Source: Dictyostelium discoideum (Eukaryota). From it: a stretch of DNA of 64,000 nucleotides. A model generated the notes under the pieces. The model worked only from the letters and a program-made list of their open reading frames with translations, searched no databases and was not told the DNA's origin. Of this stretch, positions 57,653-60,210 are shown one piece after another. Position 1 is the first letter of the stretch. Each line of letters opens with the position of its first letter. Where the stretch lies: NCBI GenBank assembly GCA_000004695.1, contig CM000155.2:2048001-2112000 (forward strand), read 5' to 3'. Made by a program: the position numbers and the translations under genes.

Positions 57653-58013
57653 AATCTTTAAAAATCTTTAAATAAATAAATAATAAATCTTTAAAATTTT
57701 TAAACAAATATATAATTTGTCTTTTAATTAATATTTTAAATTTTAAATTAATTCTTCTAGTCAACCTTATTTATTATTGACATAGATTTTTTTTTCTTCT
57801 TAATTCTTGTTTGAAAATCTTTTTTTATTATCATTTTAATAAAATAAAAATTACAAAATTTGATTGGGATAAGGGAAGTTTTTTATTTGACCCCCCCCCC
57901 CCCCACACACATATAAAATAAATTTAGATTTTAAGGAAGTTTTAATAATATGAAAGTTTGAAAATAATATTAATTAAATGTTTTATTTTTTTTAAAATTT
58001 TTAATTAAACAAA

Positions 58014-58109
58014 ATGAAATTAGTATTAATATTTTTAATTATTAATTTTTTTTTATTTATAAATTGTGAAAATTTAATAAAAGTTTTAGATGTTAGATTA
58101 GCTCAAACT
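58014..58109 (+). pseudogene. Orphan 5' fragment (first ~32 codons incl. signal peptide) of a dictomallein gene created by a local tandem duplication
   Basis: MKLVLIFLIINFFLFINCENLIKVLDVRLAQTHII is identical to the start of the gene at 58426, then breaks into a repeat of the upstream intergenic sequence at 58110. Confidence 0.7.
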
Positions 58110-58425
58110 CATATAATAGTCCACCTTATTTATTATTGACATAGATTATTTTTTTCTTAATTCTTGTTTGAAAATCTTTTTTCATTATTATCATTTTAAT
58201 AAAATAAAAATTACAAAATTTGATTGGGATAAGGGAAGTTTTTTATTTGACCCCCCCACACACACATATAAAATAAATTTAGATTTTAAGGAAGTTTTAA
58301 TAATATGAAAGTTTGAAAATAATATTAATTAAATGTTTTATTTTATATTTTTTATTTCAAATTTGAAAAATTATAAATAATAATAATTTATAAATTATTT
58401 TTTTAAAAATTTTTAATTAAACAAA

Positions 58426-60210
58426 ATGAAATTAGTATTAATATTTTTAATTATTAATTTTTTATTGATTATAAATTGTGAAAATTTAATAAAAGTTTTA
58501 GATGTTAGATTAGCTCAAACTCATATAATTCCAATTGAAGGCAAAACATGGAATCTTAAAAATAAAACTCAACATATGTCGATAATAGGGAATAGAAGAG
58601 CATTATTATTGGCAAGTTTTGAAGATTTAAATAAAAGTTATTATGTTTCAATTTGGTTGGATAATAAAATAATTGGTTCACTTGAATTAAAAGATCCAAG
58701 TCAATTACCACAAACTGAAGACAATGGAGAAAGGTATTCAACAAAACATCATTCAGTATTACTACCAAAGGAATGGATTAGACCAAACATGAAAATTAAA
58801 TTTACTTTAACCGAAAGTAAAGATAATAGTTCATTAAATATTGATAGTTCAAATTTCTTTTATCCAGATGTTAGTCAAGACTATACATTGAAAATGTGGA
58901 CATTACCATTTTATTTATTTGGTGCAAATGATACAAACACGCAACCATTCTCCGTTACAAATGGAATTGGTTCTGAAATTACAAAGGAACTAATGGAAAG
59001 ATGGTCATGTTCTGATATTATTGCTGTAAATCATCCAATACAAAGAATTGATTGGCCATATCTTGTAATGGAACCAAGAAATGGTAATCCAGCAATGTTA
59101 ATTACAAACTCTGATCAAAAGAAAGATGGCTACGCAATTATGAATGGAGTTTTGAATATTTTAACAGAAATTAGAGAAGCTTTTGGTGAATCAACATCAT
59201 CAATTCAAATTTATTCTCCCCTTTTACATTTGGGTGCTAATGGTAAGTATACTAATCCTGGTGGAGGTTTAGGAGGAGGTTCCAGGGGAACTGGTGATCA
59301 TAAATACACATTTACCTTTTTCCATGAACAAGGCCATGCAATGGGATTGCCTCATGCCGGTGAAGCTTTTGCAGCTGGATCGTACCCCTATGTAAATGGT
59401 AGTCTATTGGGATCAGAATGGGGTTATGATGCGAACCACAATGAGCTATTGGGAACTTTTATTCCTCCAACATCTGATCAATTTAAAAATTGTAGAAGAA
59501 ATTCTGTTTTTGATAGTAAAGGTCGTTGTGTTAAACAAAGTGTTATGCAAGGAGGTGCAGGTGATTATTCGTCAAAATATAGATATAGTATGTTTGCAGA
59601 TTTTGAAATGACAACAATTCAAAACTATTTTAAAAATTCAATTTATTATGATCAAACAAAAGGTACATATAAAAAATGGAATGATACATCTAAATCTTAT
59701 TTTGAATATATTCCTTCAACAAAAAACAACGGTTTATGGGGACTTGATGATGGAACACCAATTGAAAGAGATATCGAAGTATATACAATTCTATTTACAT
59801 ATAGTACAGTTGGACCAAAAGAGTTATCACAAATCTATCCAATATTAAAATCGTCAAAAGGTAATTTAATGAAAAGATATGATCCAACCAATAAAAATGA
59901 TATGAAATTAATTACACCAGGTTCAGGTTCATGGTACTGTTTTGCAAGTGGTTGTGATTACACAGTAAGAGTTACATTTGATGATGATTCACTTGAACAT
60001 ATACTATTAAGACAAGGAAAACGTAAATATTGGAACCCAATGGGTGACTTTAAGGAAAATCTTTACAATGCAACTAGTTCAAATAGTTTTATATTGAGAG
60101 GTATAAATGTTAAAGCAACCAAATCAATTAAAAAAGTTGAACTTCTTGAAACTTTAATGGCTTGGAAAGGAATTTCAAATGCAACTGTTTTAGTATCAAA
60201 AGATTTTTAA
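58426..60210 (+). CDS. Dictomallein-like M66 metalloprotease, paralogue 3 (594 aa)
   Basis: Signal peptide, FFHEQGHAMGLPHAGEA motif, and collinear with the other paralogues. Confidence 0.8.
   Translation: MKLVLIFLIINFLLIINCENLIKVLDVRLAQTHIIPIEGKTWNLKNKTQHMSIIGNRRALLLASFEDLNKSYYVSIWLDNKIIGSLELKDPSQLPQTEDNGERYSTKHHSVLLPKEWIRPNMKIKFTLTESKDNSSLNIDSSNFFYPDVSQDYTLKMWTLPFYLFGANDTNTQPFSVTNGIGSEITKELMERWSCSDIIAVNHPIQRIDWPYLVMEPRNGNPAMLITNSDQKKDGYAIMNGVLNILTEIREAFGESTSSIQIYSPLLHLGANGKYTNPGGGLGGGSRGTGDHKYTFTFFHEQGHAMGLPHAGEAFAAGSYPYVNGSLLGSEWGYDANHNELLGTFIPPTSDQFKNCRRNSVFDSKGRCVKQSVMQGGAGDYSSKYRYSMFADFEMTTIQNYFKNSIYYDQTKGTYKKWNDTSKSYFEYIPSTKNNGLWGLDDGTPIERDIEVYTILFTYSTVGPKELSQIYPILKSSKGNLMKRYDPTNKNDMKLITPGSGSWYCFASGCDYTVRVTFDDDSLEHILLRQGKRKYWNPMGDFKENLYNATSSNSFILRGINVKATKSIKKVELLETLMAWKGISNATVLVSKDF

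Follow-up and report, generated by a model that had tools for sequence, protein, structure and literature searches.

A lineage-specific partial tandem duplication upstream of Dictomallein-4 in Dictyostelium discoideum AX4

The analyzed stretch was a 64,000-nt window of the Dictyostelium discoideum AX4 genome (the window; unprefixed coordinates below are positions in it), which an exact protein look-up identified as part of the 3.6-Mb record of chromosome 6. The G+C content of the window is about 22%. Four tandem open reading frames (ORFs) of the Peptidase_M66 family are located 3' of an AFG1-like ATPase gene, and each of them matches the Pfam model over the full profile. The genes that concern us here had been called dictomallein paralogues 2 and 3 in the first-pass annotation; they are indeed the second and third of the four in the window, and the UniProt names for them are Dictomallein-3 and Dictomallein-4. 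Repeat detection and pairwise alignment identified a direct head-to-tail repeat without intervening sequence in the spacer between these two genes. The upstream copy contains a Dictomallein-4-type upstream region and a truncated gene start (the stub), and the downstream copy leads into the intact Dictomallein-4. The features of the spacer are listed in Table 1.

In stringent global alignments the two copies displayed 346 matches, seven substitutions and four indels, corresponding to 98% identity over the aligned bases. The indels comprised TC, TCA, five C residues in the poly-C run and a block of 57 bp. The longest exact run shared by the copies was 86 nt, while in 200 first-order Markov sequences modelled on the same 2.5-kb region it averaged 12.9 nt and did not exceed 21 nt. 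A permissive blastn search of the unit against the window returned AT-rich noise and was discarded. The T at 58117 can be assigned to either copy. The repeat lies essentially where it had been annotated, and the two start codons (58014 for the stub and 58426 for the intact gene) agreed, while the boundaries given for it (57762-58109, restarting at 58120) were 3-8 nt off. The shared coding sequence had been put at 96 nt, with the junction at 58109/58110 in codon ~33; alignment instead gave 104 nt and a junction at 58117/58118 in codon 35. The stub was 97% identical to Dictomallein-4 over these 104 nt and 99% identical, with few gaps, in the upstream region. Since only gap-ridden alignments (80-92%) were obtained with the other paralogues, the stub is the twin of the 5' end of Dictomallein-4 specifically. 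The distal half of the unit, including the poly-C/(AC)n block, had no counterpart 5' of the other three dictomallein genes.

Five other assemblies of the locus (L001-L005), reached via protein look-ups, were compared with the window. L001 was 99.6% identical to it over 15.6 kb. The duplicated region was identical, including the C14 run of copy 1 and the C7 run of copy 2, and L001 departed from the window only in a single AT-rich stretch (49361-50200) and in the lengths of homopolymers. L002, L003 and L004 had one copy of the unit each, with spacers of 479, 466 and 426 nt, respectively, against 773 nt in AX4. The 35-residue N-terminal stub was detected by tblastn in the window and L001 only, and a 30-mer spanning the junction had no match in public metagenome contigs. 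Removal of exactly 57758-58116 from AX4 left a sequence that could be aligned over its full length with L002 and L003 (about 93% identity) and showed no gap at the junction. AX4 encodes the same four intact genes as L002-L004, the 35-codon fragment being the only extra. Both AX4 copies have the same derived indels relative to L002 and L003, indicating that they are each other's closest relatives.

A recent study reported Nanopore and Illumina genomes of AX2-214, the tropical isolates CR116C and OT3A, and the possible cryptic species M4B and S6B (Holland et al., 2025; PMC12745789). Judged by the match to this genome set, L001 is probably AX2-214, L002 and L003 are probably the tropical isolates, and L004 and L005 probably represent the cryptic species. 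L002 and L003 differed from AX4 by about 4% in the Dictomallein-4 protein and by about 8% in the spacer, which agrees with the genetic divergence of tropical isolates from AX4 described in that study (Holland et al., 2025; PMC12745789). Among the genomes available, the duplication is real and specific to the AX4/AX2 lineage.

The single-copy strains L002, L003 and L004 were used as outgroups to polarize the differences between the two copies. The 57-bp block was present in the single-copy promoter of all three, so it is ancestral and was lost by copy 1. It had been described as an AT-rich insertion of about 55 bp in copy 2, and the direction of this change has to be reversed, as copy 1 deleted 57 bp. 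The start of the deletion is ambiguous over 58338-58345. The TTATTTT repeats bounding the lost block lie exactly 57 nt apart, and the loss thus bears the signature of slippage. The derived substitutions in copy 1 were C to A at 57763 and A to T at 58052 (Leu13 to Phe), and those in copy 2 were A to G at 58467 (silent) and T to A at 58468 (Phe15 to Ile). The poly-C run was longer than in the outgroups in both copies. Over the 316 columns common to all sequences, the two copies diverged by 2.2%, AX4 and L002/L003 by 7.9-8.2%, and AX4 and L004 by 14.2%. The age of the event is therefore about one quarter of that of the split from the tropical isolates, a figure that is an underestimate if the copies underwent gene conversion. 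A divergence of 2.2% makes the duplication far older than laboratory culture, and such an age is in line with its occurrence in the window as well as in L001 (taken as AX4 and AX2).

The stub ORF translates as MKLVLIFLIINFFLFINCENLIKVLDVRLAQTHII followed by six out-of-context codons (VHLIYY), with the stop codon TGA at 58137-58139. The earlier description of a dead-end 5' stub, with an upstream region and a signal-peptide-like start ahead of an intact gene, was borne out. The N-terminus consists of MK followed by LVLIFLIINFFLFIN, with a mean Kyte-Doolittle hydropathy of 2.8 for residues 3-17; this short charged n-region and hydrophobic core would be those of a signal-peptide-like sequence. The stub has neither the HEXXH motif nor any part of the M66 domain, which starts at residue 98 in Dictomallein-4, and its predicted product is not a protease. 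The exact 41-residue peptide was absent from a collection of 15 billion proteins searched by exact look-up. No gene model was placed on the stub in L001, the one assembly whose models were examined.

Other candidate products of the spacer were considered and rejected. The remaining small ORFs were not credible, having at most 46 codons, mostly non-ATG starts and low-complexity sequence. An Rfam scan of 57400-58800 identified no family; the only match was a sub-threshold one to the bacterial small RNA RsaB (E = 0.79), which was set aside as chance. The usual splice donor in Dictyostelium is GTAAGT. Where the shared coding sequence ends, GT occurs only in GTCCAC (58119), which is unlike this donor, and nothing supports splicing of the stub onto Dictomallein-4.

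Transcription in Dictyostelium was shown genome-wide to start about 29 bp 3' of TATAAA(A/T)(A/T) and about 2 bp 3' of a sense-strand poly-T tract (Chang et al., 2012; PMC3371697). The starts predicted from the TATA box and from the poly-T tract were concordant for Dictomallein-4 (58404 and 58406) and for its counterparts in L002 (5974 and 5973) and L003 (5992 and 5991). Copy 2 thus appears to contain a canonical Dictyostelium core promoter with a predicted start site. The 57-bp loss removed both ATG-proximal TATAAAT boxes from the stub copy. The only strict TATA sequence left there is a distal TATAAAAT at 57912, which lies 83 nt 5' of the start predicted from the poly-T tract and has no matching poly-T of its own. 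The stub had been credited with a putative promoter of its own; it does retain the poly-T tract and the C-rich element further 5', while the canonical TATA was in the deleted 57 bp. On these grounds the stub is best regarded as a truncated ORF that is preceded by an upstream regulatory region and has no canonical core promoter. Two AATAAA signals are located at 58198 and 58203, 59-64 nt past the stub stop codon, and if the stub were transcribed they would probably end the RNA before the C-rich element of copy 2. Both copies contain a mini-ORF of three codons (ATG AAA GTT TGA; 57950-57961 and 58305-58316), which is conserved in L002 and L003. It lies 5' of the predicted Dictomallein-4 start and would be relevant only if the distal TATA were used.

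The C-rich element, which consists of GGGAAGTTTTTTATTTGAC and then Cn(AC)n, is conserved in position in each of the loci L001-L005. The complement of the GBF response-element pattern, as quoted in PMC2257962, was matched in both AX4 copies (57890-57911 and 58250-58266) and at the orthologous site in L002-L005, and the spacers of the other three dictomallein genes were without it, save for one site at 60351. With an 11-nt form of this pattern, 27 overlapping matches were counted in the window, distributed over about nine sites, whereas shuffled sequences contained 0.4 matches on average. The C-rich block suggests developmental regulation of Dictomallein-4 and is taken as a lead only, and the duplication doubled this likely cis-element. 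A separate strong C-rich (A/C)C-repeat match (CCCCCCACCCACACACACA) was observed at 50969-50987, about 40 nt 5' of the start codon (51022) of the AFG1-like ATPase gene.

Table 1. Positions of the repeat copies, promoter elements and flanking genes at the Dictomallein-3/Dictomallein-4 spacer.
Feature	Position	Strand	Remarks
Dictomallein-3 (DDB_G0292824)	55859..57652	+	Upstream neighbour; ORF, Pfam match, exact look-up
Copy 1 (stub), 360 nt: Dictomallein-4-type upstream region and first 104 nt of coding sequence	57758..58117	+	98% identity to copy 2
C-rich element of copy 1, A-C14-(AC)3A	57890..57911	+	Fits complement of published GBF response-element pattern (PMC2257962)
Scar of the 57-bp deletion in copy 1, single TTATTTT left	57983..57989	+	
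T8 tract of stub copy	57986..57993	+	Poly-T kept; no TATA ~29 bp 5' of predicted start
Stub ORF, 41 codons: 35 Dictomallein-4-type codons, then VHLIYY and stop	58014..58139	+	
Duplication junction (...CTCATATAAT/AGTCCACC...)	58117..58118	+	In stub codon 35; 1 nt (T) microhomology
Copy 2, 413 nt: working upstream region and 5' end of Dictomallein-4	58117..58529	+	Pairwise alignment
C-rich element of copy 2, A-C7-(AC)4A	58250..58266	+	Orthologous block, shorter, in L002-L005
57-bp block, copy 2 only, with flanking TTATTTT repeats (58338-58344, 58395-58401)	58338..58401	+	Ancestral
TATAAATA, predicted TATA box of Dictomallein-4	58372..58379	+	Midpoint +29 gives ~58404; not in stub copy
Second TATAAATT	58389..58396	+	Absent from stub copy
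T7 tract just 5' of predicted Dictomallein-4 start (~58405)	58398..58404	+	End +2 gives ~58406
Dictomallein-4 (DDB_G0292826)	58426..60210	+	Intact parent gene of stub; ORF, Pfam match, exact look-up

The duplication joined codon 35 of Dictomallein-4 (...CTCATATAAT/TCCAATTG...) to a non-coding site about 310 nt 5' of its ATG (...TTAATTCTTC/TAGTCCACC...). These breakpoints have 1 nt in common and their flanks are unrelated. A shared TAATTC hexamer in the vicinity was not used, as the junction is without the TTCTTC that its use would require. Because the breakpoints share a single nucleotide only, the duplication was non-homologous and did not arise by recombination between paralogues.

Given the structure, the junction, the polarity of the changes and the lineage distribution, one non-homologous tandem duplication explains the data most economically, and we put its probability as the best explanation overall at about 0.8. 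In one head-to-tail event, later than the divergence from the tropical D. discoideum strains, about 415 bp reaching from about 310 nt 5' of the Dictomallein-4 ATG to codon 35 would have been copied in a common ancestor of AX4 and AX2 (the NC4 lineage). The upstream copy would thereby have been severed from the rest of the gene, leaving a truncated, non-protease fragment. Slippage between the two TTATTTT repeats then removed 57 bp from the upstream copy and with them the TATA boxes of its core promoter, and both copies have acquired point changes and changes in poly-C length. We infer that the stub is transcribed weakly if at all and serves no function itself. An effect, if there is one, would concern the regulation of Dictomallein-4 and be exerted through the second C-rich element about 360 bp further upstream, and the 41-codon ORF itself is most likely an inert, decaying fragment.

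Several observations weigh against this reading. The AT-rich stub still contains weak TATA-like sequence (TATTAATT near 57966) besides the distal TATAAAAT at 57912. Because such residual sequence remains, the silence of the stub is something we infer only. Dictomallein-3 is without a strict TATAAAWW within 200 nt, and therefore a strict TATA motif is not obligatory. No transcript, start-site or protein data for the locus were found in the literature searched. Searches with dictomallein, the DDB_G identifiers and the dtml names found nothing, those combining Dictyostelium with M66/StcE returned bacterial work only, and the supplements of the paper on long non-coding RNAs had no mention of dictomallein genes. 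The names of the comparison strains come from the genome set of Holland et al. (2025; PMC12745789) and not from the records themselves. Moreover, all of the single-copy strains diverged from AX4 by at least 8% in the spacer, and close North American relatives of NC4 lie outside the comparison.

The same origin could also be combined with an active stub. TATA-less transcription, or transcription from the distal TATA, would then yield a short polyadenylated RNA and perhaps a 41-residue peptide targeted to the endoplasmic reticulum (ER), or the stub would alter expression of Dictomallein-4 by interference or as a tandem enhancer. Activity would be in accordance with the features that the stub has kept (upstream region, conserved C-rich block, poly-T tract, ATG context and intact hydrophobic N-terminus), with the distal TATAAAAT left at 57912 and with the AATAAA signals following the stub stop codon. 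However, both conserved ATG-proximal TATA boxes were deleted, and the three indels and the derived amino-acid change of copy 1 accord with drift. The peptide was absent from the protein collection searched, the product would be without the entire M66 domain, and expression evidence was not found in the literature searched. We therefore consider an active stub unlikely. The more specific proposal, that the stub is a TATA-less developmental promoter giving a short RNA or a 41-residue ER-targeted peptide and tuning Dictomallein-4 in the NC4 laboratory lineage, would if anything be slightly less likely than that.

Different origins for the stub were also weighed. A recent duplication of Dictomallein-4 could have produced a full-length fifth paralogue, which was later deleted from codon 35 to about 310 nt 5' of Dictomallein-4. 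The same final sequence would result, and the array does change, as seen in L005, where most of the Dictomallein-4 coding sequence is gone while the promoter and a 3' remnant are left. This history appears quite improbable, as it requires two events and a right end of the deletion equal to the left boundary of the earlier unit, given that the homology of the copies starts precisely at the junction; no five-gene strain or other trace of an extra copy was found among the genomes examined. Unequal crossing-over within the array, of which the first-pass annotation had regarded the repeat as a footprint, did not stand up to the junction. The tandem paralogues, with 76-83% DNA identity, do offer a substrate for misalignment and non-allelic homologous recombination between array members. 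However, the joined sites are non-homologous (codon 35 and a non-coding site about 310 nt upstream) with a single base in common, the nearby TAATTC hexamer was left unused, and the chimeric genes or whole-gene gain or loss expected from such exchange were not seen in AX4, all of which makes this origin very improbable. That the repeat is an artefact of assembling a repetitive AT-rich array is close to negligible. The AX4 reference is of low quality nearby, with an N at 49156 and a concentration of mismatches to L001 at 49361-50200, but the separately produced assembly, a 2.2-Mb contig, is identical down to both poly-C lengths, and seven substitutions and four indels with derived states in each copy are not expected of a stutter artefact. 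The repeat had been put forward as a tandem segmental duplication, and this was upheld; that it is real is supported by the independent assembly with the same structure and by copies that differ by 2%, each with derived changes.

The locus of L005 (Dictyostelium cf. discoideum) showed a rearrangement at the same boundary. At L005:10380-11700, the upstream unit of Dictomallein-4 was kept (10459-10658), while residues 1 to about 455 were replaced by about 680 nt of non-coding-like DNA without a continuous frame, and only a degraded 3' remnant of the gene was left (11268-11674). A 213-residue gene model in L005 was considered as a captured gene and rejected as a dubious model, since continuous reading met 25 stops. 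At L005:6001-10379, the deposited model of 1222 residues fuses the first two dictomalleins (the counterparts of 52987-54786 and Dictomallein-3). In tblastn searches these were two separate full-length genes, and the fused model is probably an annotation artefact. The replacement in L005 and the duplication in AX4/AX2 together indicate that the 5' boundary of Dictomallein-4 was struck independently in two lineages.

The genes flanking the stub matched Pfam PF10462 with 470-485 bits (gathering cut-off 20.6) over profile positions 1-306 of 306 and with E values of about 1e-142. Their translations contain HEQGHAMGLPH, and the M66 domain occupies residues 98-407 of Dictomallein-4. The paralogues are arranged in tandem, with the DNA identities given above. 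The gene order AFG1, four dictomalleins and Na/H exchanger was kept in four of the five genomes. The fourth dictomallein in the window (61065-63089) is represented by two ORFs (61065-62054 and 62214-63089) separated just 5' of the HEXXH region; one intron of about 150 nt could account for this split, and the remaining three dictomallein genes are intronless.

Some further observations concern the window in general. The stretch 49156-50200 looks like a low-quality part of the reference, as it contains an N (49156) and a cluster of about 25 mismatches to L001, mostly G or A in AX4 and T in L001. The poly-A tract at 54823-54840, 3' of the first dictomallein, was 18 nt longer in the window than in L001, and smaller T-run differences between them were located at 60779-60780 and 63321-63325. 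At 40187-40876, blast matches every 199 nt identified a tandem repeat with a period of 199 bp and four copies, which sits at the margin of the 34-40 kb region, where G+C is higher and the AT skew is unusually strong.

The repeat is a genuine lineage-specific partial tandem duplication that left a decaying gene-start fragment, and as such it is an ordinary small structural variant. Its significance is mostly practical and modest, and it would not surprise a specialist. The reference genome of this major model organism contains a nearly perfect second copy of the Dictomallein-4 upstream region, and short reads, primers, CRISPR guides and promoter reporters directed at the 5' region of the gene will match two places. 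The locus also provides a polarized example of how tandem families gain debris, in which part of a gene was duplicated non-homologously and slippage then deleted sequence and disabled the spare core promoter; a second, independent rearrangement affected the same gene boundary in a sister species. In addition, the core-promoter rule of Dictyostelium could be tested on the two copies, a naturally matched pair of which one retains and the other lacks the TATA block.

Small tandem duplications with little or no homology at the junction are of the end-joining or replication template-switch type. The stub resembles them in its head-to-tail arrangement without spacer, its 1-nt microhomology, the single copy in relatives and the colinearity obtained on removal of the unit; end joining, replication slippage and template switching would each be a candidate pathway. 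Compared with Peptidase M66/StcE-like metalloproteases, the 35 codons of the stub are the start of Dictomallein-4, and unlike these proteins the stub has no M66 domain. Fragments of tgrB and tgrC and 26 tgr pseudogenes were described in Dictyostelium arrays (Holland et al., 2025; PMC12745789). Like these fragments, the stub is a truncated member of a tandem family, confined to one lineage, at a locus that was independently rearranged elsewhere (L005). Unlike the tgr loci, the dictomallein array is otherwise stable and is not a hypermutable hotspot, and the event involved about 0.4 kb and not tens of kilobases. The large tandem duplication on chromosome 2 is AX4-specific and absent from AX2-214 (PMC12745789). 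The stub event is likewise a tandem duplication in a laboratory strain, whereas it is far smaller (about 0.4 kb) and common to the window and L001, which is probably AX2-214.

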